Part shown: positions 6,701 to 39,780 of the stretch, piece after piece
How positions within the stretch are numbered: the stretch's first letter is position 1
Layout: every line of letters starts with the position of its first letter
NCBI RefSeq assembly: GCF_964204865.1
Contig: NC_135253.1
Location: 13,144,001-13,208,000 of the forward strand
From: Styela clava
Taxonomy: Eukaryota
Length of the DNA: 64,000 nt
Reading direction: 5' to 3'
Notes under the pieces: model-generated
What the model saw: the letters and a program-made list of their open reading frames with translations, nothing else
Databases searched by the model: none
What the model was told of the DNA's origin: nothing
Position numbers and translations under genes: made by a program

Positions 6701-7063
6701 GTGACGTCACCGAATGCTGTATACAGAATCTAGAAGTTTTGTTTGCACTAATATCTGGTGGTGATTTTCGTGATTAGTATCTGGCATTTTGTTAGTGCCG
6801 TGTTGGAACACGAAACTTCAGTAACGCTGGAATTTGTGGATATGACTAACTTTAGCGGAAAGGTTGTTATAATTACAGGTAAATTAAATGAAAACCCATT
6901 GATTCAACAGTAGGAAAAGGAATAACAAACGATTGCCGATCGACTAAAATTAATACTACCGAATGCCTATAATACAGAGAAGAAAATTCAGGATATCAGT
7001 GGGAAGAACTGAAGTAGGAATTAGGAAAATGAAGTGACGTCATAATGCCGAAAGTTGACGTCA
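6701..7063. promoter_or_regulatory. Three full CRE/ATF palindromes (TGACGTCA) flanking SDR paralog 1 exon 1
   Basis: TGACGTCA at 6702, 7035 and 7056. Function is not shown. Confidence 0.3.
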
Positions 7064-9801
7064 TAATATAAAAATATATCGTAAAATAAATCTTCTACAG
7101 GTATGCTGATTCATTTAAAATCTAAATAAAGTGAAAAACTAAATAGCATTAATGTCCTCAAAAGTACAGCAGGCTATATAAACTTGCTATCACTTGAAAA
7201 TAGGTCTGTTTACAATTTATAGGTGCCTCTAGTGGAATCGGAGCAGCCACTGCAATTGAACTCTCAAAAGGAGGAGCCAAGTTAACAATCTGCGGAAGAA
7301 GCAAAGAAAGATTATCAGAAACAGCCAAAACATGCAAAGAAAATGGTGCCAAGGTATTTGTATTTTTGAACTTCTTGATATAAATAATTACAATAAATAA
7401 ATAGTGCTTCAAAATAAAACATTTTCAAGTTTTCTTTTAAAAGAGAATAAAGAATGCAATTTCAGTAGATACCGTGCCAGTAAAGCTTGCAGTGAATAGA
7501 CTTTAAAAAAATAAACAAATGAAGCTGAAGTTTTTTGAGTTGGACTAAAATTTCAAGTTATATGCTTATGCTGTAAATTATATTTCAGGTTCTTGAAATA
7601 GTTGGAGATTTATTAGAGTTTGAACATTTGGAACATATTATTAACAAAACAGTCGAGAAATTTTCTACTATTGATGTGTTGATTAATAATGCAGGACGTG
7701 GCTTGGCTAAACCTTTTGAAAATGTGAGTGGTTCAACCATGTAAATCTTGCCAATCTGAATTTCTCAAAAAAATTTTTTTAATATAATGTAACATATTTT
7801 CATCGGTAAACAGTCCAATGTCGATCTAAATCAATGTTTGGCAAACAGTGAAACACTGCGTACAGTGAAATGAAATTGGTTGATATTCTTCCAACAATAC
7901 AATTATTTAAAGGGCAATGCACGATAACAACGAGTATATAAAATAACGTAAAATACTGTTATTTTTTTGTACCTATAATGCAAAAAATTTAACATTAACT
8001 ACTATTTTTTTTAATCCAATCTTAACTTATGTGGTATGACATAAAAAACAAGCGGTGCCACTTTACCTAACATTACCCCAATCGCATAAAGACATTCTAA
8101 TAGAATTCAGGTTCTAGAGTCAATCGAAGTCAATATCTGGGTGTTTTTTTTCAACTAATCGGAAGTTGTGAGCAAAGCTTATTTCCGAAAAGTCAAGTTT
8201 GATTGAAAATTGACTTATAATGCGCAATCCTCCTCGTTACGAAAAATAACGTGAGTCGATCGATATGCATACCATTTGGAACTATAAAATTTATTTCATT
8301 TAGCTCTATGACTTTAACAAAGTATATTTTCAGGTAGAAGTAACTGATTTTGACATGCTGTTTCGGATACTGGTTAGGGCTCCTGTGTTTCTCTGCAAAT
8401 ATGCATTACCATATCTAAAGAAAACAAAAGGTGAATCTGAAAAAATATTTTGTAACAGTATTAACCATATACACTTATATATCCATATTGTTATTAATTA
8501 ATTTTACATGTGGTATCCACATAAATACAATGTATAAACAATGTATAATAAACCCATCGAACTAAATATTTAATGAATAATTTTAGGATGTGTAGTGAAT
8601 GTGTCGAGTATTGCATCACTTGGTACAAAAATATCGAGTATTCCATACCAAATGTTCAAATGTACTTTGGATTACTTCACGAAAGGATTTGCAGCAGGTC
8701 AGTGTTATTCAAATTGTTTTAGTAATGTACCCCATTAACATTTGGTACTCAATTCCGATACGATATCATATAAGATATAAATAGTCGAGTTGCAGAATAT
8801 GGTAAATTACTTATTCTGGTAAACAATTTTCAAATACTAACCTACCACTTTTAGTGGATAAATTGGGACATATCTCAAATTGCAAAAATTGAAGAATAAA
8901 AAAGTTTTCAGAATGTTATTTTGTTGTTTATATGAAATGATAACAAAGCAGAAAAAATCTGATGGCAGATTAACGGAATTTTCATTTTCAACTCTAAATA
9001 GATTGAATTTCATATAATCGACATACTGAAGATAATTCAATAAATACTACACTTATTATTTTACAGAGTGCAGTCCATTTGGTGTCCGTGTGAATTGCAT
9101 AAAGTAAGAAAATTTTGAAATTTGAATTTTACTTTCTCATACACTCAAATTTCTTATTAACATCTACATATAAAATTTTTAAATTTGCATCTTGTAGTTC
9201 TAACTTAATCATAAATTTGTATAACGCATCTTACTTTAAGGCTTCCATATCATCAACGTAATAGTTATTTTATAATTACAGTCCAGCACTGGTGTCGACA
9301 AGAATCGGAGAGACAACTGGATTGTCAAAGGAGAGCACAGAAAAGGCGAGCAAATACAGCATATTTTGTCATAACCAAATAAGCGTATCATAACTTGAGT
9401 GAATTGGTTAAAAAATATACTATTTTTAAAACTTGTGAGAAAGACTGGGAAAGATTGGCAACGTTACTTTTATTCCAAGTTCTAATCACCATACTGAAAA
9501 TGAACCAATAGATCATGGAATTCCCTACGCAAAATTCAAGAAACAACGTTTTTGTGAACATTTTTGAATTTGATCATTCTCATACCATCTTTACTTTCAT
9601 TTATTTCTGCAAACATTTATGTTTAACAGTAAAGCAATTTAATAAAATTATTCTTAGATCGTTGAGCAGTACAAGAAACATCACCCTTTTGGAATAATGC
9701 AACCTGAAACAATAGCAGCAGGAATCATGTTTCTGTGTTCCTCCCCACATGTTACCGGGATATTATTGCCTGTTGACTCGGGGTTTTTGGGCACATTTTG
9801 A
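6842..9801 (+). CDS. Classical SDR oxidoreductase (FabG-like), paralog 1; 8 exons, 251 aa
   Basis: Exons 6842-6878, 7223-7353, 7589-7723, 8334-8430, 8587-8697, 9067-9103, 9282-9345, 9658-9801 join in frame (756 nt). Motifs: TGASSGIG, NNAG, NVSS, YQMFK, VRVNCINP, PVDSG. Intron 7 donor is GC (AAG|gcgagc). Confidence 0.93.
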
Positions 9802-10758: not shown

Positions 10759-13700
10759 ATGTTAAACTTTAGCGGAAAAGTTGTCCTAATTACAGGTAAA
10801 TCAGAAGGAAACCTATTGGTTGAAAATAGGAAATAAAGTAACAGGCGCTGGCCTATCGACAGAAATTAACCTTATAACCCAGAAAATATATATAATTTAG
10901 GATAACAATGGGAATAATGAAAGTAGAAATGAGGAAAGATAAAAAGAAGTCATACTGCGAGAACTCGGAGCAATACAGAAAAATATCACAAAATATATGC
11001 TTGAAGAATGCTAGATCATTTCAATACCTAAACATGATGGTAAATAAACCATCATTATCAAATAAAAATGTACAGCAAGATATATAAACGTGGTTATCAC
11101 CTAAAATAGGTCTTCTCAATTTATAGGAGCCTCTAGCGGAATCGGAGCAGCAACTGCAATTGCATTTTCAAAAGAAGGAGCCAAGTTAACAATCTGCGGA
11201 AGAAACAAAGAAAGATTATCAGAAACAGCCAAAGAATGCAAAGAAAATGGTGCCGAGGTCTATTTATTTTGAGTTTCTTCGAATAAAATAATTACACTAA
11301 AGAAGATATTGCTAAAAAAAAATAATACATTTTTTGTGTTTGGGCACTAAGACCAAAAACGAAGTTTTTTACCCACAATTCCCCCATCAAAATCATCTCA
11401 AAGCTGGAGCCGTGGAACAGCTACCATAACTTATCATTACCGGCACCAGGGCACGCGGAAATTTTTAAAATAAATAAAAATGCTTCTAGCGACAACAGCA
11501 ATCTTAAACCACTAAAAATTTCAGAATAATTGGTCCAGCAGTTAAAGGGGAAAGTTATTTTTTATAGACAAGAATGTCGACAGTAACAGCATAGCAAAAC
11601 GATTCGTAGGTCCACTTCGCGTTCAATAAAATAAATAAAACTTTCAATAATATACAAAAGGGTTATGGTATATTCTATAAATTATATTTCAGGTTTTTGA
11701 AATTGTTGGAGATTTATTAGAATTTGAACATTTGGAACAAATTATTAACAAAACAGTCGAGAGATTTTCTGCTATCGATGTATTGATTAATAATGCAGGG
11801 CGAGGATTGGCCAAAACTTTCGAAAATGTGAGTACTTTAACCAGGTAAATTATGTTCTTCTGGGTTTCTTGAATTTTTTTAAAAATATGCTCTATATATA
11901 TTTAGTTAACATTTAGTTGATTCATTTCGTTGACAGACTGTCTACTGTCCACCTCAACCAATGGTGGACAAACAGTTACGGTAGGTTGAGAGGTACTCAG
12001 ATTTTGACTCATTTGAGTGAAATAAAACGCCAAATCAAAATAGAAAACTACACTGCCGCCCTGTCAAAAAAATGAATCCGAATTGGTTGATATAGTCTCA
12101 ATAATACCGTAATTTAGAGGGTAATGGTGCGACAGCAACTGGGTGGTTAATAATACAGACGCAATAAATTTGAAAACATCGCACATTTCATTTTAGTACA
12201 GAAAATATGAGAATAACCTCTAAATCTTTGTTACTCATGAGTGCACACTTGACTTGCTTAACTGATGAAGTTTAACCTGAAATGATGTGGGGAAAATGCA
12301 AGTGAGAAAATTTGGCATCGAGATATTGCGATCATAAAAACATTTGAATACTAATTTAACAAACAAAATTTTAAAAATCTTAAATTATTTTATAATTCCG
12401 AATTCATTATCTGGCAATGTTCAAACTAATCGTAGGTCGCGTGTCAAAGTAAATTGGCTCTTACTGAAAAATCGTACATGTTATTAAAATCGTGAAACGA
12501 CATGCATGCCAGGAGGATAAATCTAAAATATTTATTTCGTATAAATCTATGACGTTAACAGGAGATGCATTTCTAGGTAGAAGTATCAGATTTTGATATG
12601 TTGTTTGGGATACTCGTTCGGGCTCCAGTGTTTCTCTGCAAATATGCTTTGCCTTATCTAAAGAAAACGAAAGGTGAATCGGAAAAATTGTTTTCAACAG
12701 AATAGTATTAACCATATACAATTATCATATATATTGTTGTAATGTGATTGTGAATGCGATTTTCACATAATTCCATTGTATTGTCAAAAATTCATGTGGC
12801 TCAATATTTAATGAATACTTTTAGGATGTGTAGTTAATGTGTCGAGTATTGCGTCGATGGGTACTAAAATAGGGGATATTCCCTATCAAATGTTCAAATG
12901 TGCTTTGAATCACTTCACGAAAGGATTTTCAGCAGGTCAGAGTTATTTGTATTGTTTTATTTAAATTGTTGAATGTTGTTATTTCATTCGGTTATGATGA
13001 AATATAAGATATAAACAGTCGTATCGAGTTGTTGAAACTAAGTAAAATCTAATTCATTTTTTCTTGTGACAATTTGCAAATATTAACCTGGTACTTTTCA
13101 GAAAGTTACATGTGAGATGTTTCAAATTGCAAAAATTGAAGTAATTTTCAGAATGGTGATTCTGACATTTCCTAATTTATATAAAATGATAACAAAACGT
13201 AACAAATCTTGTAGAAGATGAATGAAATTTTCATTAAATAATATAATTATTTTACAGAGTGCAGTCCATTTGGTGTTCGTGTGAATTGCATAAAGTAAGA
13301 CTATTTTAAAATGTAAATTTTGCTTTGTCACACAACATAGAAAAATTTTAAATTTTCATCCTGCAGATTATAATATTCAAAAATTTGTATAACGCAACTG
13401 ATCAGAACTCAACCATTTTAGGTGACTGAGCTTGGTTTTGTACACTGTACAATTCCTCCAAGTTTTTTACTTCGAGCCTTCCACTTGTATCAGCAACCGG
13501 AAAAATAATTTTCACCAAAATCAGCGTTCTATATTTACAGCCCCGCATTAGTGGAAACAAGAATTGGTGAATCATCTGGAGTGCCAAGGGAAGTTATGGA
13601 TGAGGCGAGTAAAAATATTTTGTCGAAATTAAAATAGTTTATCATGACTTGAGTTAGGAATATGCCATTTTTACACTTGTAACATTACTTTCATTTTAAG

Positions 13701-14031
13701 TTTTGATCACCGTATTGAAATCATGTAATTCCTTCAAACACAAAATTCAAGAAACAAAGTTTAGTGAATAGTTAGTTAATGGTGTTTACATTTGGCCACA
13801 CTTAATGTTCATAGTTTGCCACTTTCCAGCTTTAATTATTTTGGCGAATATTCATAGAGTAAAACATTTCGATAAACTTATTCTTAGATCGTTGAGCAGT
13901 ACAAGAAACATCACCCTTTTGGAATAATGCAACCTGAAACAATAGCAGATGGAATCATGTTTCTGTGTTCCTCCCCACATGTTACCGGGATAGCACTGCC
14001 TGTTGACTCGGGATTTTTGGGCACATTCTGA
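10759..14031 (+). CDS. Classical SDR oxidoreductase, paralog 2; 8 exons, 251 aa
   Basis: Exons 10759-10795, 11127-11257, 11693-11827, 12577-12673, 12825-12935, 13258-13294, 13541-13604, 13888-14031. Exon sizes identical to paralog 1; TGASSGIG/NNAG/YQMFK present; GC donor at 13605. Confidence 0.93.
11341..11627 (+). mobile_element. DINE-1/HINE-like repeat, truncated copy (SDR2 intron 2)
   Basis: Shares TTTTACCCACAATTCCC, AATTGGTCCAG and the terminal AAACGAT...GTCCACTTCGCGTTCAAT block with other copies; absent from SDR1 intron 2. Confidence 0.6.
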
Positions 14032-14982: not shown

Positions 14983-17900
14983 ATGAAATTTTTTGGGAAA
15001 ATAGTGGTTGTCACAGGTGAGATCACGTGTAATAAGATAAAGGCGTGTCGAGAAATATGTCTGATGTGAGAGTACTGGTACGTAGCGAGCCTGCCAGCCA
15101 TGAATTTCATGTTAGTGGTAGACATGTTGTTCTATATTCAAGCGTCCGATATCATATTACTGATTGAAAACTTTGTCCTTTTTTTTCTGAAAATTTTAAG
15201 TAGTTTTTACGACAGAAACGAATTTGTCAATTCATATTATAAGTTGCTATTGTAATGGTTTTATATTTAGTCCATGGAGTATATATATAACAAGAGTGCA
15301 ATGCCCAAACAAATTCCCACGAAGATCCCAATGACTAATCACATCACAATTACTTAGCCTATGCAACTTACATATTTATGATCGATCAAAAGCATCAAAA
15401 TTGCAAATCTAGCGCACTGTCGAAGCAAATCAACGAGGTACCGGTGAGACCTTAGCTGAGAAGCGAGCCCCCCCTTTGTCGGAAAGATATCAGACTAGTC
15501 TGGCATGATGCCACGTGATGTCTCAATATTCAAAGAAATGGCAAAATTTTAAACGACATATCGATCTCTATAGGACTCAGAGGAAATTTAGGGAAATTAT
15601 GTACCCGATTTTTACAGTAACAAATGTTACACCAACACTAATTTAGCAAGGCCTTACATTTCGTGTCCATTGGCTTATTCCGTGTTTATTTGTATTTATG
15701 TTTATTTGACTGTGACAAGTGTATCAGTTGCGTTTCTCTATTTCATTTCAATTCACATTTAATAAATAACACAACATTGTATGTTTATTCATGGCAGGAG
15801 CATCGAGTGGGATCGGTGCAGCTACCGCAATAGCATTCTCAAAAGAAGGAGCTAAGCTGGCAATTTGTGGGAGGAATAAAGAAAGATTATCAGAAACAGC
15901 AAAAATATGTCTCGAAAATGGTGTTGAGGTCTGTTTTCTGATTTCGTGTTTGATTAAATGCCGATGACAAAAAAACTACACGGTACGATGACCAGATCCA
16001 CATGCCCGTATATTTTCTTGGAAAACAGTTGGGTAATATATACATGGAATTATCATCAAGAAAGTGATCTGCTTTATTGCATCAAAATTACAGGCCGAAG
16101 AGCTGTAAAATAACAATTTGTTGGGTAGGAAAATATATTATTATAATAATATTCACAATAATAATATTTTAGGTTTTGGAAATTGTTGGAGATCTATTAC
16201 AATTTGAGCATTTGGAACTAATCATCAACAAGACAGTCGAGAAATTTTCTGCAATTGATATTTTGATAAACAACGCAGGACGAGGATTGCTTAAATCTGT
16301 TAGTGATGTGAGTACATTTCAATTGTTATTAGAAACAATATGCAAGTCGGTAAGATGACTTTCCCTATTGTACTTTGTTGGGCTTTTGGCATCAGGTCAT
16401 CTGAAGTTCTTTGGGTTCAAATCAATAATTTGGAATCAGCAAACAAAAATGTATTAAAAACTTGACTCATAAAGTAAAAAAAATAACAGATTTCCAAGGC
16501 TGCCAAAATTACGTTTACCAAATTAAGATAAATATACATGCTTGCCTGAGCTGAATATTTATTATGCATAACAAACAAACATACAAAATTTAATTTCAAT
16601 GGAAAAGTTATAGTTGCTTTTCTTTGCTAATACATATCTAAAATCACTATCAAGCGAACAAAAGGCCATGAAAGTGACAAAGAAGCAATGTTTAATTATA
16701 CAGATAGGAATTTCCAATACTTGATAATAGTATAGCAGTAACCATTTCGATCTACACTAAAATTTGTAATTTGATCGTTCAAATGCTTGAAAGCGATTTT
16801 GAATTAACGCAGCAATCCACTTGGTTGTCGTATGGCGTTAGATGAACAGCGGGTTTACTGAAATAAAACAAAATTAAAGCAGAAATTTCTGAGTGAAAAT
16901 CAACAAAATAATTCATATATCCATTTCGTGTTCAACAATGCTAATTTCATTTTAGGTGGAAGTTCCTGATTTCGATCTATTATTTCGCATACTTATTCGT
17001 GCTCCTGTTTTTTTATGCAAATACGCTTTGCCTCATCTCAAGAAAACAAAAGGTGCATCGAATTATTAAGATTTTTATTGTGTAGGATATATATATACTG
17101 AATTTTAAACGCATTTTTCAACATAACTGTGATGAATTGTACAAAAGAATACAAATATAAACAGGACAGCAAAGCTCAAATATATGACACGAAGGCTAAA
17201 TTGAAATATTTTACCCACAATTCCCACAAAACCATTTCTCGATCGAAGCTGGAACTGTGGAACGGTTATCGTAACTGCATAATTCAAAAATTACGTCACT
17301 GCTACCTCACTAGACACCTGCTATACACAAGACCCTCAGTTACCTACTGTAACCCTTACCAAAACATTTCCGTAGAACGAGCACTGACTTTGCCAAATCA
17401 AAACGTAGACATCCTGATGTTGATGTGAGCCGTCACGCTTGGCGGAATAAATACCATGCTCCCACGAAAAAAAAAAACAGCGAAATTTTGAATTTAATAT
17501 CGGATCTTATAGGATTCATAGAAAATATAGGAGTAATAGCCTTCAAGCGACAACAACACTCTTTAAACCACTGAAAATCACAAAGCAATTGGTGCAATAG
17601 TTGGAGAGAAAAAAAATTCTCAACAACAACAAGAATATTAATAGCAACAACAAAACGATCGATATGTCCATTTCGTGTCCAACAAATGAATTTTCCTCTC
17701 ATAGTCATCGATATAATAATCTCCCGTCTCATACATACACTTACAAATTCTTAAAATTGTAGGGTGTGTAGTGAATGTGTCGAGTGTAGCGACGTTTTGC
17801 AGTGGAAAAACATCTACTTGTTACAAAATGTTCAAGGGTGCTTTGGATCACTTTACATCAGGATTCTCTGCAGGTCGATTTTCGATTCGAATATTTGATA

Positions 17901-19228
17901 ACTTATAGTGAGGAAAGTAAAAAATATTATGTCACTCTTTAACCTGATGGTGTGAATCTGAGCTGTTGGATAAAAAGCCTTTTGTCGTGACTCGTAGACA
18001 ATTGGTATTAATATGTTGCAAAATGAATGATCATAATTATATGATGTAGAAGATGAAAAACTTCAATTACTAAATAAAACATAATGAGTATTAAAATATC
18101 AATTTATCCCATGAATACGATCAAACCTGTACACATATATATAATATTCTGTAGAAAATTCAACGTTATTCTCCGTTTGATATCCAATCGTGATGTTATT
18201 GTATCTACGGTTCCAAACTGTAAGTCAAGCTGCTAATTTCTTCACATTTTATAAAATTATTTTACAGAGTGCTGCCCCTTCGGTGTCCGTGTGAACGGAA
18301 TCAAGTAAGTGAAGTTAAACTAATTGAATTTTCAATTTGCCATGTTGCGTTTTCCTCAGTGTGGATACTTTAGGACTTATGGTATTCAATTATTATTCCT
18401 AACCCAGGGGTTTCCAAACTAGGGTACATGTACCCCCTGGGGTACATTTTGACTTTTCAATGCGTCCGTGGAATTAAGTACAATGATATTCTTCCCATAT
18501 TTATGGCTTGGGCTTCTACAAAAGATCTGAAAATTTCAAAGCCATTGGTCCAGTGGTTGAAGCTTTGCGATATTTTCACAACAACAAGAACAACAGGAAG
18601 CAAAACGAAAATATCAGCAACAACATAATATATACCTAAACGATCCCGGATCCATACGTCCATTTCGTGTCCAATAAAAACAAAACTATCTTTAGACCCA
18701 TTTCGTGTCCAATAATTACAGAACGATTCATAGACCATTTCGTGTCCAATACGTTGTGCATCAAAGCATGTTAAGCTTGAAGATATGATAAAATTCGGGG
18801 GTACACTAGCAATTTGAAAAAATATCAAACTGGCACCAATGAAAAAAAGCAAACCCCGTCCCAGCCTAATATTCCTATACCGTTGTTGAATGTCCTGCTA
18901 TAGCACATATGAAAAAAATGATGCAAATCCTAACCTACATCTCTTTTCCACAGTCCAGCTGTCGTTATGACGAGAATTGCAGAAACATCTGAAATGCCGA
19001 AGGATTCCGCGGAAAAGGCAAGTTTATGTAATTAATAACAGGACTAAAAAGAACAAAATAATATAAAAAATTGTTTTTATTCAGATGCTTGCGAATTTGA
19101 AAGATCAACAACCGTTTGGAATTATTCAACCAGAGGCAATAGCTGATGGAATCTTGTTTCTTTGTACCTCTGCTCATATCACGGGAATATCACTGCTCGT
19201 AGATTCGGGATTTTTGACTACAATTTAA
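14983..19228 (+). CDS. Classical SDR oxidoreductase, paralog 3; 8 exons, 250 aa
   Basis: Exons 14983-15016, 15798-15928, 16173-16307, 16956-17052, 17763-17873, 18268-18304, 18954-19017, 19085-19228. Starts MKFFGKIVVVTGASSGIG; NNAG; YKMFK; GC donor at 19018. Confidence 0.92.
17159..17682 (+). mobile_element. DINE-1/HINE-like repeat (SDR3 intron 4)
   Basis: Starts AACAGGACAGCAAAGCTCAAATATATGACACG; ends AAACGATCGATATGTCCATTTCGTGTCCAA. Confidence 0.68.
18405..18857. mobile_element. Degenerate hAT-type MITE in SDR3 intron 6, containing HINE-like end sequences
   Basis: Left end CAGGGGTTTCCAAACT with GGGGTACA subterminal motifs; decayed right end near AAACCCC at ~18857. Confidence 0.5.
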
Positions 19229-21184: not shown

Positions 21185-24100
21185 ATGTCATTTAGCGGAA
21201 AAGTTGTCATAATTACAGGTAAATCAGTAAAATACAAGTTTGATTAATAAAAAAAGACTATGTGCACTTGTATGCAGACAAGTATCAATACTTCTAAGTA
21301 GCTTATCTATCACTGGTGTTATAAAGAGTTGACAGCATATCGTCCTAATGTCTTTCAAAATCACGAACAAGCTTGAAAACGCATTTCACCACAATTTTGA
21401 TTAGGTCTTCTTAAATTAAGGTGCCTCCAGCGGAATCGGAGCTGCAACTGCTATTGCATTTTCAAAAGAAGGAGCCAAGTTATCAATTTGTGGCAGAAAC
21501 AAAGAAAGGTTATCAGAAACAGCCAAAGAATGCCAGGAAAATGGTGCCGAGGTTAGTTTTAGGCTGGTATTCTACAAAATAATCCCAATCAGGTAACATA
21601 TTTCCTTATAATATATATTTTTTGGAGTTCAAAAAGTATATAAATTTTTATATTAAATTAAACAGATATTCAAAACAGTAGTGTTTAGTAACTACCCCTT
21701 GAAGATGGGAATTTTTAAAAGTGTACAAAAGTGTATGTTATACATGCTTACGTTATAAATAATATTTCAGGTTTTAGAAATTATTGGAGATTTGTTAGAA
21801 TTTGAACATTTGGAACATTGTATTGACAAAACAGTCGAGAAATTTTCTGCTATTGACGTGTTGATTAATAATGCAGGACGTTCATTGGCTAAACCTTTCG
21901 AGAATGTGAGTTTGATATAACCGCTTTTGATATTACTGTTGGTAGGAATACTGACATTTCTTTATATTTTGCTCCGAGAAATACAGTAACCTTTAAGGAA
22001 TGAATGTTGCATTAAATATTCAAATTTAACGTGTTCACCTAATTTTAAAGTTCTAAATCAGCCGTTCCCAACTTTTTGTTCTCGCGGCGCCAAATTATCA
22101 GGAAAAAAACTCACGGCGCACTTGAAAAAAATTGCTGGTTTTTAAAGAAAACTCAATTTTGTGATCGTTAATGTGTACTTTACGCTTTTTAAAGTTTGTA
22201 AACATGTAGGCCTAATGGAAGATTGTATTATGGTCAAAGAAAAGCCAATGGTGTAAATTATACAAGTGGGGAAAATGTGACCTAAAAATCTACCCATTGA
22301 CATATTAATTTACTCAATTAATGAAAAAAGGGAAAACAAATATAATATAAATGTGAAAATGTACAACAATTATGATGTCGTCGTCAGGAGCCAAGTATAT
22401 TTTTTCTTATCTTACGAATCTTATTTTTCGACCACAGTAAAAAGTCGAAAAATTGACTGCACAAATCCACATATTTATTTAACCTAACTTCTAAGCCTTG
22501 AAAGAAATACTTTTCAGTTTTGATATTTTCAGACAGAAGAAACTGATTTTGACATGATGTTTCGGATACTCGTCCGAGCGCCCGTTTTTCTCTGCAAATA
22601 TGCTTTGCCCCATCTGAAGAAAACAAAAGGTACTTTATATAAAAGTTTCCGTGATGGCCATGGAATATATGCATTAGCTTATCGACGTCTCGTACCAGAC
22701 GTTACAGCTCAGACATTTTGGACCAATATACCAATTTCTTTACTACAAATAGTAAAAGTAACGTATTTTGGCAATGGAAGTTAAACAGTTCGTCATATTA
22801 TTCAGTTTTTTAGTAAATACAATTCACGAAAATGGAGGGGAGCGTAAAAGTTTGACGCAAACTAAACAACACGATATTTGATTTCTAACACTCGGTATAG
22901 GTCGTGGAACCGCCACACGGTGCGCAATTTTTAATTCTGATGACCTCTAGACACAAAATCAAAAAACGAATCGCATAGAGCCCACATGAATTTTGTCGTA
23001 ACAATGATAATAAAAACAAGTAGAACAACATCAAAATAACAAAACAATGCATAGGTTCACTTCTTGTTCAAAAACAAAAACAAATTCGGCCTCGTGGACC
23101 CATACGGGTGTGTAATGATGTCAATACATAATATTTAGCGACGCTGATAATCGATATATAAATTGTTGAATTGATTTTTCATTTGAAACGCACATAAATC
23201 AGGTTTATTGAGAGCTAATGTGTATGAATTAATATATATAATAAAAAATTTCAACATAACAAATTATGTTTTGTAATTCGAAATTTCAGGATGTGTAGTG
23301 AATGTGTCGAGTGTTGCATCACTATGCACAAAAATAGGAGACCTCCCATACCAAATGTTCAAATGTGCTTTGAATCACTTCACGAAAGGATTTGCAGCAG
23401 GCAAGTATTATCTAAATAAATTCAATTATTTGATAACACGGATGTCTCAAAAAGTTCGTGTCCCACTTGTCTAACGTCTCCCACTTGTTTCAGGGCAAAG
23501 TGGGACAAGTGAGACACTTGGGACAAGTAAGACAAGTGGGACACAACATTTTCGATACACCGACACATACTAGCCTACTTTGTTCGATTGCAATAAATAA
23601 TAAGATGAAAACAACTTTTTATTTGCTGTACTATTACTACAGTAATAATCTTTAGTTCTTTATTATTACTAAAATTTAATAAATTTTTTGAAAAAAGTTA
23701 AAATCGTCACACTATACCGTTTTCATTAGCAAATATTTTTTTAAATCTATTTTAAAATTGTGATCCTGATTTTGGAGATTTGTATAAAATATTGATAAAG
23801 CGTTAAGTTGAAATATAGCTCCAGCTTGATAAAATTTTTGCTTTTAACTCAAATTAGATTGAATGAAATGAAAATAAATGATACAACCCATTAAATGTAT
23901 TTCATTAAACAATATAACCCTTATTTTACAGAGTGCAGTCCATTTGGTATCCGTGTGAACAGCATCAAGTAAGAAGATTTGGAACTAAAAATAAGATTTA
24001 TAAACAACTTGAATTTGTTATCAACAGATAAAACTAATAAATTTCTACGGAGCAGAACTAAATTGTTCATAAATGTATTTTTTACTGTTTTTGATTGGAA

Positions 24101-24722
24101 TTATATCATTGGATGATTGCAAGCGCTTCTTTTTATTCTTGTATGGTAAACTCTATTTTCAAGCTTTTTGCCTTGACTTCGACTGTCTGATGCTTGAACT
24201 CCTTGAGCAAGCTCTATTTAAATAATAAAAATATCACAAGTATCGTATTTACAGCCCAGCTGTGGTCATGACAAGGTTTGCAGAAACATCAGGATTTTCA
24301 ATGGAAGTCATGGACAAGGCGAGTAAATATATTTTGTTATTGAATTTATCGATTTATTTTACGACTTGACTGAATGCATCATATAAATATCATCGCCCCA
24401 GCTCGCCGGAGTCGAAAAAATTTCAACATAACTTTTATTTCAAGCTCCTGTCCACTCAGACTCGCTACCTCACGAAATGTCTAATAAATGAGATTTCCAC
24501 TAAAATTATTTAAATTTTATTCGAAATGAAAACGAAGTTTTCTCAAGAGTTGAAATAATTCAAATTTTAAATTTTTAGGTCGTTGAACGGTTCAAGAATA
24601 ATCATCCTCTTGGAATAATTCAACCTGAAACAATAGCTGCTGGAATCATGTTTCTGTGTACTTCTCCTCATATTACCGGAATATTATTGCCAGTGGACTC
24701 GGGATTTTTGGGTACAATTTGA
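21185..24722 (+). CDS. Classical SDR oxidoreductase, paralog 4; 8 exons, 250 aa, two GC-AG introns
   Basis: Exons 21185-21218, 21421-21551, 21771-21905, 22533-22629, 23290-23400, 23932-23968, 24255-24318, 24579-24722. YQMFK; GC donors at 23401 (CAG|gcaagt) and 24319 (AAG|gcgagt). Confidence 0.91.
23439..23562. mobile_element. 124-bp foldback MITE in SDR4 intron 5
   Basis: Imperfect ~33-bp TIRs (CGGATGTCTCAAAAAGTTCGTGTCCCACTTGTC / GACAAGTGGGACACAACATTTTCGATACACCG), internal ACAAGT(G)GG reiterations, possible ACA TSD. Confidence 0.7.
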
Positions 24723-28899: not shown

Positions 28900-31800
28900 A
28901 TGAAGCAATTCAGCGGAAAAGTTATCATAATAACAGGTAAAGTAAACTAGATTATAGGCCTACCAGTATAACAATGAGAACTTTAAATGATTTATACTTG
29001 AAATAATATTATCAAATAAAACAAGAGAGCTACGCCCAAATATATGGACACGTCTGTTCGCAGTACAGTACGTTGTACCGTACCGTCAGATCACAGTCTA
29101 CAAATATATTCACACCAAGCGAAGCAGTACAGTAGGACACAAAATGGCGTCCCATGACAGCAGAACGTTTAATGACGTCATAGCAAACAAAAACAAATCT
29201 CACAGAGCTAATAGAAATATTTAAAATGAATAAAAGTAATAGCCGTCTGCGGAAAAATTTTATCTTCAACCACTGGAAATTTCAAAGCAATTGGTCCAGT
29301 ATTCGAAGAGAAAAGCGGTTTTTTAATATTTCCATTTGGTGTGTTATTCTGTGTCAAATAACAACAAGAACAAGAACAACATAATATTGAAACGATCGTT
29401 ATGTCCACTACGTGTCCAATAAAAATAATAATCTGTAGAATAATATCGTCATTGGGTGATAGCTTAGCGACTTTGATATCCAGAAAGTTTATCGTGGGAA
29501 ATTCAGACAAACAGCTATAACAAAATACCACACCGGTATATTTCACAGAATACACCTTAAATAGTGTTTAAAAAACTAACTGTCTGTAAATTGCGCATTT
29601 CATTACCGCGATGGGGAATGAGACTATTGATTATAACGTTAGAAGGATTTAAACACAGCGGCGGCCATTCTATACTACAAACTTAGGTTCCCAAGACATT
29701 GTCACCAATTCGTATTTATGACCTGATAAATAGCAATTAAAAATTTGAAAACTGGGTGCCTCGCGCTTTCAAAAATTGTCGTATTCAGTTTTATGTAAGT
29801 CAATATCTTCATCAAATATTTGCGAAAAGCAGGATGTGATTGTTCCATCTTTAAACCCTTTACAGTCTACAATTACGTGGAATCATAGTTGTTTTCCCAT
29901 ACCTTTGAATTGATGATAAACTTGGATCTTCTACTTTTAAACGGCATTCGCTGGCTTCTTTCATGGGAAATACATTTCAAAAATTATTCCAGGTGCTTCT
30001 AGCGGAATTGGTGCTGCTACTGCAATAGCGTTCTCGAAAGAAGGAGCCAAGTTGACAATTTGTGGAAGAAACAAAGAAAGGTTATCAGAAACAGCAGAAG
30101 AATGCATAGAAAATGGCGCTGACGTTAGTTATTAAAAAACATAATTCCGGTTACGCCGTATCCGGTCGATAAATTCGTAAAATAAGGAGATTTTTTTTCA
30201 TCAATTGCTTCCGTTCTCAAAATTAAGAGCCACGCATAAAAAGAAATTTGTTGAAGTTCAATGGAGTCCGCGATGTATATATATTTTTTTTATTTGTAAC
30301 TCTTTACATATAAAGGGTTCTTGTCGATGTGTCAGTATGAAAACGTAAAGTAATGTGCAAGATATTACAGGTTTTGGAAATAGACGGAGATTTAACGGAG
30401 TTTGAACATTTGGAACCAATTGTCAACAAGACTGTTGAGAAATTTTCGGCTATTGACATTTTAGTGAACAATGCAGGATGTAGTGTGTATAGATCTATTG
30501 GCGATGTAAGTTATTTTCACTAAAACTTCACTTTTTTACTGAAACATGCCATATATTGAATGAACGAAAAGGCTCAAGCACCAGAAAAATTTAGTTCTGC
30601 TTTGGTATTCTATCTCATCATTTGTACCAATTTAAAACCAGAACATGTTGTTAAATTTTATTCACCACAAATTCAATTAGAATCTTATTTTAAACAGGAC
30701 TTAGTCCTCGTCTAATTTTGTTCACTGATAATTACGACCTAATTACTTATTGCATTTAATCGATATGTTTTTATTTTATGTGGCGTCGCATAACAAATTA
30801 TCAGTACCAGACGAGGACAAAGACCCATTGCTACACTGAGTGTACTTTTGGATCCTTATACCTACCAATTTAATATTTTTACTACAAGAATTTTATTCCT
30901 ACATACCCACATAATTAATTTTTGCAATTTCTCAACTCCCAGGGGTGGCCAAACTGGATAGACATAACTGATATACACAGTATTATGAACCAAGCCTATT
31001 TTAGAACACTCAATAATAGCTACCGCATCGCACCTCCTAAAAAGGATGCCTTGTATTGTTACCCAAAACAATATTCATGCATATTTTCGATCATTTTCAG
31101 ACAAAGGTTGAAGATTTTGACAAGTTATTTCAGATACTACTTCGGGCTCCTGTATTTTTGAGCAAATATGCTTTGCCTCATTTGAAGAAAACAAAAGGTT
31201 ATTTATTTTTTAATTTGACTTTTTTCAAAGAAAAATATAGGGTATAAATTTACAAAAGCTCAAAGATAAAAAAAAAAGGGCAAAATTTTATCTTTAATGC
31301 AACCCAAGACTTCACTACATCTTAGGCTTGTCCATTCCATCATACAAATGTTTAGTCATGGAAACTTAGCGTCACAACTGTCACTTGAAACAAAAAATGT
31401 CTCAAATGTTTTTAACCATGCCGAGTCAAAAGCGAGCATGTCAAATAGTAACAATTATCTGTTTTTTTTCTGATACCATTTCAGGATGCATTGTAAACGT
31501 GTCGAGTGTAGCAGCAATGATGAGTTCACCAAACGGTGTTCCTTATAAAATGTTTAAAGGCGCTCTGGATCACTTTACAAAAGGTTTTGCTTCAGGTCGG
31601 ATACGTATGCTAATGATTAAATACCCTACGTCTAATAAAATATTCATCGAGTAAAATAGCATTTTGTGCAAAATGACGGGTTTCAGTATAGTTGATAAAA
31701 GATGTAAATTTTCCAAAGTTCTGAATTCTGAGCTAAATGGGGTCTGGGTATTTTTCAAGAACATTATTGAAGTATTAACACATAAACATTTTAAATAAAT

Positions 31801-33049
31801 GAGAAGAAAGATCCTGCCTTGAGGTGAGGAGCTGAACGTTACGCGTTAAGTGGACGAAGAATATTTTATGCACAGAAACGAATCAGTGGGTTCTCCCACT
31901 TCGATCCAGAACAAAAGCAAACGTAGCGTTACGTTACTTCTATTTGTTAAAGATTTTATATTTTGGGAACTTGCTGACGAATTGTAGGCTACTGAAGGAA
32001 GTTATATCTCATTAAATCTAAACGGTTAGTAGTGACTGGGTCTGATGAAAAGTGCAGTGGAGCAGTAACTGTTGTATTAATGGAAGTTGCAACGAACGCG
32101 AGTTAGTAATTTGAATTGCAGTTTTCTCTGCATTATTAAATTTTACTATCAGTCTCCGGGGATGGCGAAAAATTGGCCTTGCCATGTGGTTAGTAATGAA
32201 AGGGGTTTAAAGAACACTTTAGCACTTGCGAAAACGATAGACAAGTAGTCTATGACTCTATGATACCAAAATAACCGCGACTATAAGTAAGAAGTCGTGG
32301 ACTATGTAAATAAGCACAAAGCGCTATGCCCAATATATATATATATGTGTCAACTAATTATCACATTTGAAAAATCGTCTTTGCGTGTTTATTTTTGTTT
32401 TACAGAGTGCAGTCTGTTCGGTGTTCGTGTAAACAGCATAAAGTGAGCATAAAAAAATTCTTATTGGAGCTGAACTATTGCGTGATATGTATATTGGCTA
32501 AGAGGAGAGCTAGGAGATCAAAACTCGTTTCAAATATTTTAATTCAAGACACAACTAGTAGTGATATGCTTTTGAATTTTATTCTCATTGTGTTACTACT
32601 ATTTTCCAAGTGTACCATTTTAAAATAAAAATCAACTATTAAACCTTCCATGTATTAATCGTTCATTTCAATTTACTAGCGTCATAGATGTACCGAACGT
32701 AATTTTTTTCAATTAGAGAATTAAATTAAGAACTGATTTAATTTTACAGTCCAGCTCTTGTCCATACAAGAATATTAGACACATTCGGACTAGCCAAGGA
32801 CGTACTAGAAAAGGCAAGTGAATTTATTATTGCACCAATAAACTCAATAAGAACGAAAACTGACTGACGAAAAAATATTAATAATATTTAATTTAATATT
32901 ATTTTGTTTAGCTTATCGAGAAATCTGAAGCCCTGCATCATTTTGGGGTAATGCAACCAGGAACAATAGCAGACGGAATCAAATTTTTGTGCTCATCTCC
33001 TCACATTACTGGAATTACACTACCAGTTACTTCGGGTCTTTCAGTATAA
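28900..33049 (+). CDS. Classical SDR oxidoreductase, paralog 5; 8 exons, 249 aa
   Basis: Exons 28900-28936, 29993-30123, 30371-30505, 31101-31197, 31485-31595, 32406-32442, 32750-32813, 32912-33049. TGASSGIG/NNAG/YKMFK; ends PVTSGLSV*; GC donor at 32814; AATAAA at 33056. Confidence 0.92.
29020..29420 (+). mobile_element. DINE-1/HINE-like repeat (SDR5 intron 1)
   Basis: AACAAGAGAGCTACGCCCAAATATATGGACACG ... CGTGTCCAAT; empty A-rich site without TSD in SDR6 intron 1 (~36110). Confidence 0.72.
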
Positions 33050-33914: not shown

Positions 33915-35283
33915 GGTTACGGCATACAGTCAATCTGCAATTTCGCGTATAACTTAAATTCGGCAACCACATAAACTTGCTGCAAAATATACACCAAAAT
34001 AATAAAAGGTCCGAACAACGGAACAGGCGGTATGTGTAGGAAATGAATGCCCGAATTCGATTTAAGCCGGAAAACGTTATTTGTAATCGATCTTATTGAC
34101 GCGGACTACTTTTTTCAAGTGCAGCAAATCAAGTGCAAATCAGTTTAACCGAGAGGATGTCATTGAATTGGTAATATTTTTATCCTTTTTTTTATCAAAC
34201 GTTTTTTTGAAAATACAGTACTTCTACAATGAGATTGATTGGTTATGCGAAGAATTAAGTGGGTTGGTGGTATACAGACAACATGTTCAGAAATATTTGT
34301 TTCAAAACAAGCCTTGTTACCTTGTTACCGGTTTTCATTTTTCTCCATTTAGATAGGTGTTTGAAAGTTTACCATTCTGAAATAAACACAGAAACATGTA
34401 ACAAAAATACAAATCGTGCGCAATAGGTAAATCATCAATGACACAAAACAGAATCAAAATGAAGCGATAACATATTTCTCAAACAATAATATGAAACAAA
34501 ATTATTAACACACACATGTGCATTTTAGTTTTTTTGAAAGTGTTCTGGGGAGTTGGCGCTTACAATCTGGTATATATATATATATGTTCAGAAACATCAT
34601 TTTCATTAAAACTATTTGACCACGTGCCGCTTACAGTTCGAGCTTGTTTGTCACAGCGTTTGCTGGATTAATTTTTTAACTGCAACTAAACTAGAGCTCC
34701 TCGGAAGACATAATGAATATTGAGTTATTTGATTTAGAACTAGTTTTTGAAAACACAATTGAAATTGACAAGTAATGCGCAAAACAACGAAAACAAAGCA
34801 ATGCTTACAATGATGCTTGGATATCTGTTTGAGGGGTTGGACGAAGTGTAATTGTTTCGTCATTGTTAACTCATTGCTGATTGGTCATTGTCACGCCATC
34901 AAACAAAGAAATCGATTCTCGTTTTAATGAAAATGATGTTTTTGAACATATATATAAACCAGATTGTAAGCGCCAACTGTCCAGAACACTCTCAAAATTA
35001 TTTTAAAAACTCTTATATATATTACAGGTTTATTTTTATTTTTTGTCAAAAGCACAAACTTATCAATAAATATCAATTTGGTTTATAAAACAACCATGAA
35101 TAAATTACCAAATCATGCATTGATCGATTTGGTTGAAAACACCTTTGAACAATAGAAAACATATATGTATATTGTGTTTATAGAAGGCTCTGACGCTGTT
35201 AACTGTGATATATTCTTTTTATACAACATCCTTATAGTATCTGTGAATGTGCGAACAATCTTTTAAAAACTATCTAACATCAA

Positions 35284-35667
35284 AACAAGTGACCGATGCT
35301 CAAATATATGGACACGAAAGCCAAAACGAAGTAGAACGGGCATGAAATCTGTCGTAGTAGACAACAGGTAAGGCAGTCTTCACTCTTCACGAATCACGAA
35401 TAACGTGAAAGCGGAACCGCCACAAGGTGCGCAATTTTTGATGATGTCATCGCACACAAAAATGAAACCCATAGAGCACACAAAATTTTGACATATATAA
35501 ATAAAATTAATTAATTTCTAGAGAAATACACAATCTTTAACCACAGAAAGTTGGTCCAGTAATTAATAAAAAATGAGATTTTTATTCGGTGACAAACAAG
35601 AATTAGCAAAAGAATTCGAACAGCAAAATGATGATAAAACGATCCATATGTACATTTCGTGTCCAAT
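35284..35667 (+). mobile_element. DINE-1/HINE-like repeat
   Basis: Duplicate of 27289-28573 lacking the nested hAT element. Confidence 0.68.
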
Positions 35668-35993
35668 AATTTCATGTTCAGTCGCTTGAAATGCATGGTT
35701 ATGCAACAGAAAGAACCAATTTTGATAACAGCACTTATGGCGAATTGTTATAAGCAATGATCCCATAGCTAAGAATTCTGATTAACCTACTCGCAGTTGA
35801 ATAAATCCTAAGTTTTTCGAATTCGAACATGTTAGTTGCTATCATTATTTGTGTTGCAACATACAAGCATTTGTCCCAGCTGTGATTATACGCGACCGAC
35901 ATTACTGCCAAGTCAGACATTTGGTTAATAAGTTACAAGCACTAACTAAACTTGGTAGGCTTTGTGATTGAAATGAGTCAAGAGTAGGAAGTC

Positions 35994-38900
35994 ATGAAGC
36001 AATTCAGCGGAAAAGTTATCATAATAACAGGTAAAGTAAAATAGGTTATAGGCCTACCAGTTTATAGATGAGAACTCTAAATGATTTATACTTGAAATAA
36101 TATTAATAAATAAAATAATAATCTGTAGGATAATATCGTCATTGGTTGATAGCTTAACGACTTTAATATCCAGAAAGTTTATTGCGGGAAAATCAGTCAA
36201 ACAGCTATAACAAAATACCACACCGGTATATTTCACAAAATACACCCTAAATAGTGTTTAAAAAACTAGCTGTCTGTGAATTGCGCATTTCATTACCGCG
36301 ATGAAGTGAGACTATTGATTATAACGTTAGAGGATTTAACTAAGGTTCCCAAGACATTGTCACCAATTTGTATTTATGACCCGATGAATAGCAATTAAAA
36401 ATTTGAAAACTGCGACGACCAGACTCAAACATAATGATAATATCAAGTTTGTTCCATGTATTTTTTAAAACATTTGCTACGAATCTTTTAAGTCCAAGCT
36501 CTTAGATTAGTTTGTGGTTTCCAATTGCTTAAAAATGCGTACGATTTATCATATGGGTGCCTCGCGCTTTTAAAAATGGTCGTATTCAGTTTTATGTAAG
36601 TCAATATCTTCATCAAATATTTGCGATAACAGGATGTGACTGTTCCACCTTTAAACCCTTTGCAGTCTACAATTACGTGGACTCATAGTTGTTTTCCCAT
36701 ACCTTTGAATTGATGATAAACTTGTACCTTCTTACTTTTAAACGGTATTCGCTGGCTTCTTTTATGGGCAATACATTTTAAGAATTATTCCAGGTGCTTC
36801 TAGCGGAATTGGTGCTGCTACTGCAATAGCGTTCTCGAAAGAAGGAGCCAAGTTGACAATTTGTGGAAGAAACAAAGAAAGGTTATCAGAAACAGCAAAA
36901 GAATGCATAGAAAATGGCGCTGACGTTAGTTATTAAAAAACAAAATTCCGGTTACGCCGTATCCGGTCGTTAAATTCGTAAAATAGGAATATTTTTTCAT
37001 CAATTGCTTTCTTGCTTTTGTTCTGAAAAATGGAGAGCCACGCATAGAGAGAAATTTGTTGAAGTTCAATGGATTCCGCGATATATATATTTTTTTCAAT
37101 TGTAACTCTTTACATATGAAGGGTTCTTGTCGATGTGTCAGTATGAAAACGTAAATTAATGTGCAATATATTACAGGTTTTGGAAATAGACGGAGATTTA
37201 ACGGAGTTTGAACATTTGGAACCAATTGTCAACAAGACTGTTGAGAAATTTTCGGCTATTGACATTTTAGTTAACAATGCAGGATGTGGTGTGTATGAGT
37301 CTATTGGCGATGTAAGTTATTTTCACTGAAACATGCCATGAAATGAAAAAATGAATAGGTTAAACACCAGAGATTTAGTGTTGCTTTGGTATTCAATCTC
37401 ATCATATGTACCAATTTAAAACCAGAACATGTTGTTAAATTTTATTCACCAAATCCAATTATGATCTTTTTTTTAACAAGACTTTGTCCTAGGCTAATCT
37501 TAATCAGTGATAATTACGACTTAATTACTTATTGCATTTAAGCGATATGTTCTTATTTTATATGGCGTCGCATAACAAATTATCAGTACCAGGCGAGGAC
37601 ATTGCTACACTGAGTACACTTTTGGATTCTTATATATACTTACCAATTTTATATTTTTACTACAAGCACTGCATTCCTACATACCCACTTGAATATTTCT
37701 TGCAATCTTTCAACTCCCAGGAGTGGCCAAACTAGATGGATATATCTGATATATACAGTATTACGAATCAAGCCTATTTAGAACACTCAATATTTGTTAC
37801 CGTCCCGCACCTCAAAAAAGGATGCCTTGTATTGTTACCCAAAAACAATATTCATACATATTTCCGATTATTTTCAGACAAAGATTGAAGATTTCGACAT
37901 GTTATTTCAGATACTACTTCGGGCTCCTGTATTCTTGAGCAAATATGCCTTGCCTCATTTGAAGAAAACAAAAGGTTATTCTTTTTTTCATTTATTTTTT
38001 TCAAAGAAAAATATAGCATATAGATTCACAAAAGTCCAGAGATAAAAAAGGGCGACATTTTATCTTTATGCAACCCCAGACTTTACTACATCTTAGGCTG
38101 GTCCATTCCATCATACAAATGTTTAGTCCTAGAAACGTACCGTTACAACAATCACTTGAAACAAAAAATGTCTCAACAATTTTTATCCACGCTGAGTTAA
38201 AAGCGAGCATGTCAAATAGTATCTATTATTTTCTGATACCATTTCAGGATGCATTGTAAACGTGTCCAGTGTAGCAACAATGATTAGTTCACCAAACTGT
38301 GTTCCTTATAAAATGTTTAAAGGCGCTCTGGATCACTTTACAAAAGGCTTTTCTTCAGGTTGGTTACGCATGCTAGTTAGAATAGAATAGTTACCCATCG
38401 AGTAAAATAGCACTTTGTGCAAAATTACGGGTTTCAGTATTGTTGAAAAAAGTTTAAAATTTTCCAAAACTCTGAATTCTGAGCTAAATGGGGTCTGGGT
38501 ATTTTTCAAGAACATTATTGAAATATTGACAAATAAACATTTCCAATAGATGAGAAAAAAGATCCTGACTTGAGGTGACGAAGCTGAACGTTAGGTGTTG
38601 AATGGACTTAGAAAATTTTATTCACAGAAACGAACCAGTGGGCACTCCGATCCAGAACAAAAGCAAACGTAGCGTTACTTACTTGTTAAAGATTCTATAT
38701 TTTGGGAACATGCTGTAGGCGACTGAGGGAAGTTATATCTCATTAAATCTAAACAGTTAGTAGTGACTGGGTCTGACGAAAAGTGCAGTGGAGCAGTAAT
38801 TGTTGTATTAATGGAAGTTGAAACGTACGCGAGATAGTAATTTGAATTGCAGTTTTTAACGGATTCTCTGTATTATTAAATTTTACTTTTAGTTTCTGGG

Positions 38901-39762
38901 GTCGCGAAAAAATTGGCCTTGTCATGTGGGTAGTGATGAAAGGGGTTTAAAGAACACTTTAGCCCTTGCGAAAACGATAGACAAGTAGTCTATGATACCA
39001 AAATAACCGCGACTATAGGTAAGAAGTTGTGGACTACGTAAATAAGCACAAAGCGCTATGCCCAATATATAGATATGTCAACTTATCATCAAATTAAAAA
39101 AATTGTCTCATTGCGTTTATTTTCGTTTTACAGAGTGCAGTCCGTTGGGTGTTCGTGTAAACAGCATAAAGTAAGCATAAAACATTTCTTATCGGAGCTA
39201 AACTATCTCGTGGTAGGTATATTGGCTAAGAGGAGTGCTAGGAGATCAAAAACTCGTTTCAAAAATTATAATTCAAGACATTAACTAGTAATAATATGCG
39301 TTTGAAATCTATTCTCAGTGTGTTATTATTATTTTCAAGTGTACGATTTCAAAATAAAAATCAATTAATAAATCTTTCATGTATTTATCGTAACTTCAAT
39401 TTACTAGCGTCATAGATGTACCGAACGTTTAATCTTTTCAATTAATAGTGAATTAAATTAATAACTGATTTAATTTTACAGTCCAGCACATGTCCATACA
39501 AGAATATTAGAGACACTCGAAATAGACGAACTAGAAGAGGCAAGTGAATTTATTTGCACCAATAAATTCAATAAAAACGGAAGCTGACCGACGAAAGAAT
39601 TAAATTTAATATTATTTTGTTTAGCTTATGAAGGAATCTGAAGCCCTTCATCATTTTGGGATAATGCAACCAGAAACAATAGCAGACGGAATTAAATTTC
39701 TTTGCTCATCTCCTCACATTACTGGAATTACACTACCAGTTACTTCGGGTCTTTCAGTATAA
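35994..39762 (+). CDS. Classical SDR oxidoreductase, paralog 6; 8 exons, 247 aa (recent duplicate of paralog 5)
   Basis: Exons 35994-36030, 36794-36924, 37177-37311, 37878-37974, 38248-38358, 39134-39170, 39482-39539, 39625-39762. Exon 7 is 6 nt shorter (in frame); YKMFK; GC donor at 39540. Confidence 0.9.
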
Positions 39763-39780
39763 ATGTATAATGAAAGTTTC

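Follow-up and report, generated by a model that had tools for sequence, protein, structure and literature searches.

Tandem classical short-chain dehydrogenase genes of Styela clava with Leu in the tetrad Asn column and Phe before the catalytic Lys

We analyzed a window of 64,000 nucleotides from the 377 Mb genome of Styela clava (contig C4, NC_135253.1, positions 13144001-13208000), in which six genes for short-chain dehydrogenases/reductases (SDRs), here denoted g1 to g6, lie head to tail on the plus strand between window positions 6842 and 39762. All six encode intact proteins of the classical SDR type in which Leu (Leu113; residue numbering follows g4) occupies the column of the Asn of the catalytic Asn-Ser-Tyr-Lys tetrad and Phe (Phe156) precedes the catalytic Lys. 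Judging from sequence comparison, these are likely to be ordinary NADP(H)-dependent carbonyl reductases, and the Leu113 and Phe156 changes most likely amount to a single, coupled structural exchange that leaves the chemistry as it was, a reading to which we assign a probability of about 0.65. A preliminary description of the region had noted the two oddities separately; they probably constitute one coupled change, which that description overlooked. That the copies are probably ordinary enzymes follows from the tolerance of a similar swap in a known SDR family.

Active-site motifs and fold of the six proteins

Gene models were assembled exon by exon for all six genes. Each gene consists of 8 exons with identical phases and has a coding sequence of 744-756 nt that encodes 247-251 aa and contains 0 internal stops. 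The TGASSGIG, CGR, NNAG, and NVSS motifs are present in 6/6 genes, as are (R/G/Q)IL(V/I/L)RAP in helix alpha-E and Y(Q/K)MFK at the catalytic site, so that the original account of six intact paralogs with TGxxxGxG, NNAG, the catalytic Ser and Tyr/Lys, an ILxRAP helix with Leu in the Asn column, and YxMFK in every copy is borne out. The TGxxx[AG]xG pattern is the cofactor motif of classical SDRs in Table 3 of PMC2792337, and the Asn lies outside that definition. The motifs of the divergent (enoyl-reductase type) SDRs, GxxxxxSxA and YxxMxxxK, do not match the genes, which read TGxxxGxG and YxMFK.

The alignment partner of Leu113 is the tetrad Asn in the structures PDB 1spx and 1xhl, and the same column holds Asn in all 108 near homologues (120 listed of 844 matches, minus the rows labelled S. 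clava). No other Asn is placed at the tetrad position, which rules out a misaligned column. Among these 108 sequences, the residue preceding Lys is Ser (94), Thr (9), or Ala (5), and never Phe, so that Phe156 is as unusual as Leu113. Together with three genes on contig C10 described below, the array makes up nine Leu-type genes, in all of which Ser140, Tyr153, and Lys157 are invariant, giving YxxxK with an upstream Ser, and Leu replaces the helix alpha-E Asn that is highly conserved in classical SDRs. All nine also read ICGR, with Arg37 and no acidic residue after strand 2. A basic, non-acidic residue in this place accompanies NADP(H) preference in classical SDRs (PMC2792337), and the motif thus predicts that g1-g6 are of the NADP(H) type, in agreement, at the motif level, with the initial proposal.

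PF00106 (adh_short) places all six proteins, each a single Rossmann domain of ~250 aa, with 149-166 bits against a cut-off of 26.6. The AlphaFold2 model of P0003, an allele of g4, built from a 109-row alignment (pLDDT 94, pTM 0.93), has as its closest structures in a Foldseek search the Caenorhabditis elegans SDRs 1xhl and 1xkq (TM 0.94-0.95; 1xhl 0.94), and DSSP assigns to the model a predicted single helix spanning residues 103-131, the alpha-E region. The C. elegans structures 1spx, 1xhl, and 1xkq, animal “FabG-like / TM_0325-like” classical SDRs, are the best matches (E 2e-40 to 1e-36) and share with g1-g6 TGxxxGxG, GR after strand 2, NNAG, Ser, and YxxxK. At ~34% identity, 1spx and 1xhl differ from the array in having Asn in helix alpha-E and Ala preceding Lys.

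For g4 and g5, no NCBIfam model exceeded its cut-off among the best 25 matches listed: the scores were 139-144 bits against 307 for TIGR01963 (3-hydroxybutyrate dehydrogenase) and 187-188 bits against 270 for NF052558 (meso-2,3-butanediol dehydrogenase). The latter family, which includes the Serratia enzyme (6xew/6vsp), is the top NCBIfam match and the origin of the automatic name of these proteins; with a score of 187 against a cut-off of 270, the name is no functional assignment. The Serratia enzyme likewise lacks the Asn and has Asp in that column. Searches of plasmid and prokaryote sequences retrieved distant SDRs only (identity at most 44%), and an exon-4 profile run against PDB gave no useful match.

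Replacement of the Asn in other SDRs

The Asn kinks helix alpha-E, and its main-chain carbonyl binds the relay water (PMC2792337); PMC3662788 describes the same role of the Asn backbone, and PMC3922912 concurs, with His being permitted in that position. In one SDR set, Asn is present in just 58.9% of the members (PMC10579966). We examined a representative set of 158 domains, drawn from 145 of the 150 representatives listed; S. clava rows were removed, as were domains gapped at any of the scored columns. Asn is absent in 25 of the 158 domains, where it is replaced by Asp (9), His (9), Leu (3), Ile (2), Val (1), or Met (1), and Tyr and Lys are both retained in 24 of these 25. One of the three Leu cases is a snail protein.

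The (R)-3-hydroxybutyrate dehydrogenases (TIGR01963; 6zzq/6zzs) come closest to the array in this respect, with Met as the hydrophobic residue in the Asn column and a consensus, IMLxAP, that resembles ILxRAP in the Ile before and the Ala-Pro after it. We sampled 41 TIGR01963 loci: from one bacterial class the 30 top-scoring of 34 matches, from a second class 10, and 1 more; three of the loci score below the cut-off, and one adjoining open reading frame (ORF) was left uncounted. The Asn column holds Met in 32, His in 5, and Asn in 4 loci, that is, Asn is absent in 37/41, and Pro at +4 is found in 30 of the 32 Met loci vs none of the 9 Asn/His loci; because the loci are related to one another, the counts do not represent independent events. 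The 6zzq structure, a complex with NAD+ and acetoacetate (PMC12994016), has Met in the Asn column, whereas 3v2h and 1wmb, which have the same function, have Asn. The hydroxybutyrate dehydrogenases differ from the array in that they are not orthologous to it, have an NAD+ structure, and carry Ala before Lys, and the likeness is convergent.

Given Met in TIGR01963 and in 6zzq, a hydrophobic residue in the Asn column is compatible with ordinary SDR chemistry. The suggestion in the preliminary description that the loss of Asn implies altered chemistry hence appears doubtful, because the relay uses a main-chain carbonyl and Met is common in TIGR01963. That description would itself count common substitutions in characterized SDR families against its proposal, and it is partly contradicted in this way: Met is common in one such family (32/41 TIGR01963 loci, and 6zzq), and Asp stands in a 2,3-butanediol dehydrogenase, but Phe before Lys is rare. 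The Asn column alone is a poor basis for calling an SDR inactive or novel.

Family members elsewhere in the genome

Two exon searches of the genome led to the same 16 loci (16/16 and 16/19 candidates), which are lower bounds. Nine of these loci carry ILxRAP, namely the six in the window and a trio of near-identical intact genes on C10 (10228082-10245920); in one of the trio, Ile replaces Phe. The Leu/Phe form, initially reported in six copies, thus holds for the window, but three further genes exist on C10. Asn is retained at the remaining seven loci, on C1, C13 (2), C14, and C10 (3). The Asn-bearing paralogues P0056, P0058, P0059, and P0060 and two domains of P0001 are 54-64% identical to g4, with matching exon pieces and, in all but one, Pro at +4; they differ from g4 in combining Asn with Thr (C1, C13, C14) or with Leu (C10) preceding Lys.

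A phylogenetic tree of 26 rows was built under LG+G4 with the three trait columns removed and one row standing for the three C10 Leu/Phe copies. The six window genes form a clade (support 99/98) within a larger clade of ten rows (97/95) that comprises the window genes, the C10 Leu/Phe row, and three Asn genes with the motif YGMLK; in deeper paralogues, the motif is Y.MTK. Of the 18 rows in the wider clade, 16 have Pro at +4, and this Pro is already present in the closest Asn-bearing paralogues (YGMLK) and in deeper branches. The simplest reading of this distribution is that Pro appeared first, followed by Thr to Leu before Lys, and then by Asn to Leu and Leu to Phe. The Leu/Phe genes of C4 and C10 may have one origin or two: support for their grouping falls from 85 in a quick tree that included the trait columns to 23/0 once these are removed. 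The view that the array belongs to a lineage-specific SDR subfamily kept by selection, as first proposed, is supported.

The C10 genes are part of a second family cluster (C10:10192000-10262000, loci L005-L011) that consists of the three Leu-type genes, three Asn genes (YGMLK), and broken family pieces, including an exon 2 with a stop. One of the Asn genes has DKEK for GRNK after strand 2, a hint that it may use NAD(H), and two are joined in one 500-aa database model, P0001. No broken SDR pieces were found in the window or within 10 kb on either side, and pseudogenes inside the window were rejected, there being six open frames and no broken piece. The statement that the copies were kept without pseudogenization therefore stands for the window and its 10 kb flanks but not for the family, considering the broken pieces on C10.

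Coupling of Leu113 and Phe156

In the 158 representative domains, Ser or Thr precedes Lys in 117 of the 133 domains with Asn vs 3 of the 25 without it (Fisher p 8e-14, kinship ignored). Because the Asn and the Ser/Thr before Lys co-vary, Leu113 and Phe156 are most readily understood as a structural exchange in which both positions changed together. The covariation suggests a side-chain contact between the Asn column and the residue before Lys, which would be the partner of the Asn, and the Asn + Leu intermediate is seen in the sister genes (YGMLK). A contact between the two positions has reportedly been described before.

Under the coupled-swap reading, Tyr would provide the proton, Lys would lower the pKa of Tyr, Ser would hold the carbonyl, and residue 113 would still bind the relay water through its backbone carbonyl. 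Pro117 (+4), having no NH for pairing, would leave that carbonyl free even without the Asn side chain. The polar pair of Asn and Ser/Thr between helices alpha-E and alpha-F would be replaced by Leu/Phe packing, probably stepwise, from Asn+Thr through Asn+Leu to Leu+Phe, and the copies would differ in substrate but share the reaction type.

Several observations weigh against this interpretation. An engineered Asn to Leu change, with no compensating change, is said to have inactivated a bacterial hydroxysteroid dehydrogenase. Phe occupies the position before the Lys in only 1 of the 158 representative domains, one that also lacks the Lys, and is much less frequent there than hydrophobic replacements of the Asn are in theirs. 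In the hydroxybutyrate dehydrogenases, Ala precedes Lys (40/41 TIGR01963 loci), so that these enzymes set a precedent for only one half of the swap. Pro at +4 is found in 5 of the 25 Asn-less vs 24 of the 133 Asn domains, and 6zzq has Met without this Pro. Because the union of the Leu/Phe rows is supported at only 23/0, the order of steps is a reading and not a result. Finally, the Asn is called essential in PMC4635001, where the dispute is acknowledged. Pro at +4 was also considered as a general compensator and rejected, as it is not enriched among the 158 domains; support for such a role is confined to TIGR01963 and this lineage.

The Leu + Phe pair was found in 0 of the 120 listed of 844 matches and 0 of the 150 listed representatives outside S. 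clava, and a short-fragment search with residues 100-180 gave 1 weak match and no Leu + Phe relative in other species; with tunicate sampling being thin, this does not equate to absence. Among the papers listed, a literature search revealed none on a natural Leu or Phe variant at these SDR positions and no paper linking Styela clava with a short-chain dehydrogenase. The accessible text of the S. clava genome paper does not name an SDR expansion, and its supplementary family table may bear on the question.

The most serious alternative, which we nevertheless regard as improbable, is that Leu113 and Phe156 rebuild or seal the relay site and close the water channel, so that the enzymes would work without the solvent relay, run in another direction, or catalyze a different reaction, such as C=N or C=C reduction, possibly on the animal's own metabolites, in line with the altered chemistry suggested in the preliminary description. 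Reactions of the C=N / C=C type are known for SDRs (PMC2792337), a bulky Phe beside Lys could occupy the water site, the pair occurs in 0/108 near homologues and 0/158 domains outside S. clava, and both residues are retained in 8 of the 9 genes. However, Ser, Tyr, and Lys are constant in 9/9 genes, Met and Asn interchange within one enzyme function, and Ile stands for Phe in one C10 copy. If this alternative were true, the genome would retain the Asn+Thr, Asn+Leu, and Leu+Phe steps, and the route could be replayed. The literature disagrees on whether the SDR Asn has a catalytic or a purely structural part (PMC4635001), and the natural series of these three states in one genome, at 54-64% identity, could serve to test its role; in other respects, the array is an unremarkable tandem expansion of an enzyme gene whose copies diverge in their pockets.

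Transcription

None of the sequencing runs listed is on record as RNA; contigs from runs that we guessed to be RNA were used, with spliced joints taken as evidence of transcription. For g4, 7/7 introns are spliced out in X1 and X3 and 6/7 are listed in X5 (two studies). Introns 2-5 and 7 of g3 are spliced out in X5, where intron 1 is retained, and those of g6 are spliced out in X5 and X11, with introns 2 and 5 in X2 (three studies). Exons of g1 and g2 are partly covered by RNA contigs that do not distinguish the copies, and no g5-only spliced joint was among the joints listed; incomplete coverage of g1, g2, and g5 does not indicate that these genes are silent. Thus, at least three of the six copies (g3, g4, and g6) are transcribed and spliced, and the possibility raised at the outset that most copies are silent did not materialize.

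In X5, unspliced contigs cover intron 1 of g3 (14988-15795), one with a 96-base gap ahead of exon 2. Another X5 contig joins a g5-type 5' end (28542-28933) to g6-type exons 2-3 (36791), 7.9 kb apart, with GT..AG borders. The g5 and g6 upstream regions differ at 19/395 bases, and this contig differs from the g5 region at 5; a hybrid allele, splicing across duplicates, and an assembly chimera via the identical exon 1 are candidate explanations.

Selection and divergence of the substrate pocket

Pairwise identity among g1-g6 is 67-91%. By simple counting, dN/dS is 0.13-0.23 in 14 of the 15 pairs and 0.54 in g5/g6, a young pair (dS 0.08). Leu113, Pro117, Ser140, Tyr153, Lys157, Arg37, and NNAG are unchanged across the nine Leu-type genes, encoded by four codons for Leu113, three for Pro117, and two each for Tyr, Phe, and Lys. 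In seven genes (g1-g6 and one C10 copy), pN is 0.03-0.13 in the scaffold and 0.46 (residues 92-104), 0.51 (141-152), and 0.37 (184-213) in the pocket loops, with pS of 0.54-0.65. The matching loops are the three substrate-contacting loops of SDRs (PMC11926874). In 6/6 pairs, pN in the pocket is 3-8 times that in the core, and only 4 of the 55 pocket positions are invariant over the seven genes. Hence, the core is under purifying selection and the three pocket loops change rapidly; because pocket pN exceeds pS in 0/6 pairs, the comparison makes no case for positive selection. Of the original suggestion of altered chemistry or substrate range, the part concerning substrates gains support from these diverging pockets, which may reflect different specificities. 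A role of the array in specialized metabolism or detoxification is a guess.

The array could alternatively consist of weak or non-catalytic SDRs that bind NADP(H) or a ligand or serve as partner subunits of the Asn-bearing paralogues, seven of which are available as possible partners; the beta subunit of petunia benzaldehyde synthase is such a non-catalytic SDR with a degenerate tetrad (PMC13418739). The reported inactivity of the engineered Asn to Leu mutant would fit this alternative as well. We consider this still less probable than a rebuilt relay site, as Lys is lost from the petunia subunit and neither Tyr nor Ser is constant among its orthologues (PMC13418739), whereas Ser, Tyr, and Lys are fixed here across synonymous distances above 1. 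Least probable, by a small measure, is retention of the array for differences in dosage or expression on the same substrates, with the loop divergence due to relaxed constraint: pocket pN is never above pS in six pairs (g5/g6 0.138 vs 0.14), sequence variability in SDRs generally is highest in these loops (PMC10579966), and different copies are covered by different runs, but the pocket-to-core ratio of pN and the few invariant pocket positions make identical specificity unlikely.

Gene models, coordinates, and neighboring genes

The coordinates of the array are given below. The donor of intron 7 is GC in all six genes (at 9346, 13605, 19018, 24319, 32814, and 39540), and its splicing is confirmed by RNA contigs for g3, g4, and g6; the donor of g4 intron 5 (23401) is also GC, the remaining donors of g1-g6 are GT, and every acceptor is AG. 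The three C10 copies have GT at intron 7, unlike the window genes.

Coordinates of the six SDR genes and of the altered positions in g4 (window positions).
Feature	Position	Strand	Protein	Exons	Remarks
g1 SDR gene	6842..9801	+	251 aa	6842-6878, 7223-7353, 7589-7723, 8334-8430, 8587-8697, 9067-9103, 9282-9345, 9658-9801	Leu codon 8370-8372; YQMFK from 8646
g2 SDR gene	10759..14031	+	251 aa	10759-10795, 11127-11257, 11693-11827, 12577-12673, 12825-12935, 13258-13294, 13541-13604, 13888-14031	Leu codon 12613-12615; YQMFK from 12884
g3 SDR gene	14983..19228	+	250 aa	14983-15016, 15798-15928, 16173-16307, 16956-17052, 17763-17873, 18268-18304, 18954-19017, 19085-19228	Leu codon 16992-16994; YKMFK from 17822
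g4 SDR gene	21185..24722	+	250 aa	21185-21218, 21421-21551, 21771-21905, 22533-22629, 23290-23400, 23932-23968, 24255-24318, 24579-24722	
g4 Leu113 codon	22569..22571	+			Column of tetrad Asn; Pro117 at +4
g4 Tyr153-Gln-Met-Phe156-Lys157	23349..23363	+			Phe156 in place of usual Ser/Thr/Ala preceding catalytic Lys
g5 SDR gene	28900..33049	+	249 aa	28900-28936, 29993-30123, 30371-30505, 31101-31197, 31485-31595, 32406-32442, 32750-32813, 32912-33049	Leu codon 31137-31139; YKMFK from 31544
g6 SDR gene	35994..39762	+	247 aa	35994-36030, 36794-36924, 37177-37311, 37878-37974, 38248-38358, 39134-39170, 39482-39539, 39625-39762	Recent duplicate of g5; Leu codon 37914-37916; YKMFK from 38307

The models of g4, g5, and g6 match the database proteins P0325, P0321, and P0326, respectively, letter for letter, and residues 13-251 of g2 are found inside P0005. 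Two database models from this contig are truncated: P0002 (107 aa) ends g1 at intron 3, and P0322 (208 aa) reads g3 through the GC intron 7 to an early stop. The fused model P0324 includes g1, and the complete g3 is present in P0323 with a mismatch at 2/250 residues. An isoform of g3, P0006, is without exons 1-2.

The flanks of g5 and g6 are duplicated (24791-29024 vs 34202-36118, 84-91% identity), with a duplication unit of ~8-9 kb. Short repeats at ~29020-29420, 33430-33910, and 39780-39850 match hundreds of contigs and resemble small mobile elements.

Downstream of the array, the minus strand contains a single-exon frame of 546 codons (41867-43507) for a major-facilitator transporter (PF07690), presumably sialin/SLC17-like; being intronless, it could be a retrogene. 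A multi-exon gene on the plus strand (~47300-56800) with adenylate-kinase and Dpy-30 pieces is one that we take to be adenylate kinase 7. Subtilase exons with a weak PF00082 match, which we assume to belong to a PC2-type proprotein convertase, occupy ~58500-64000 on the minus strand.

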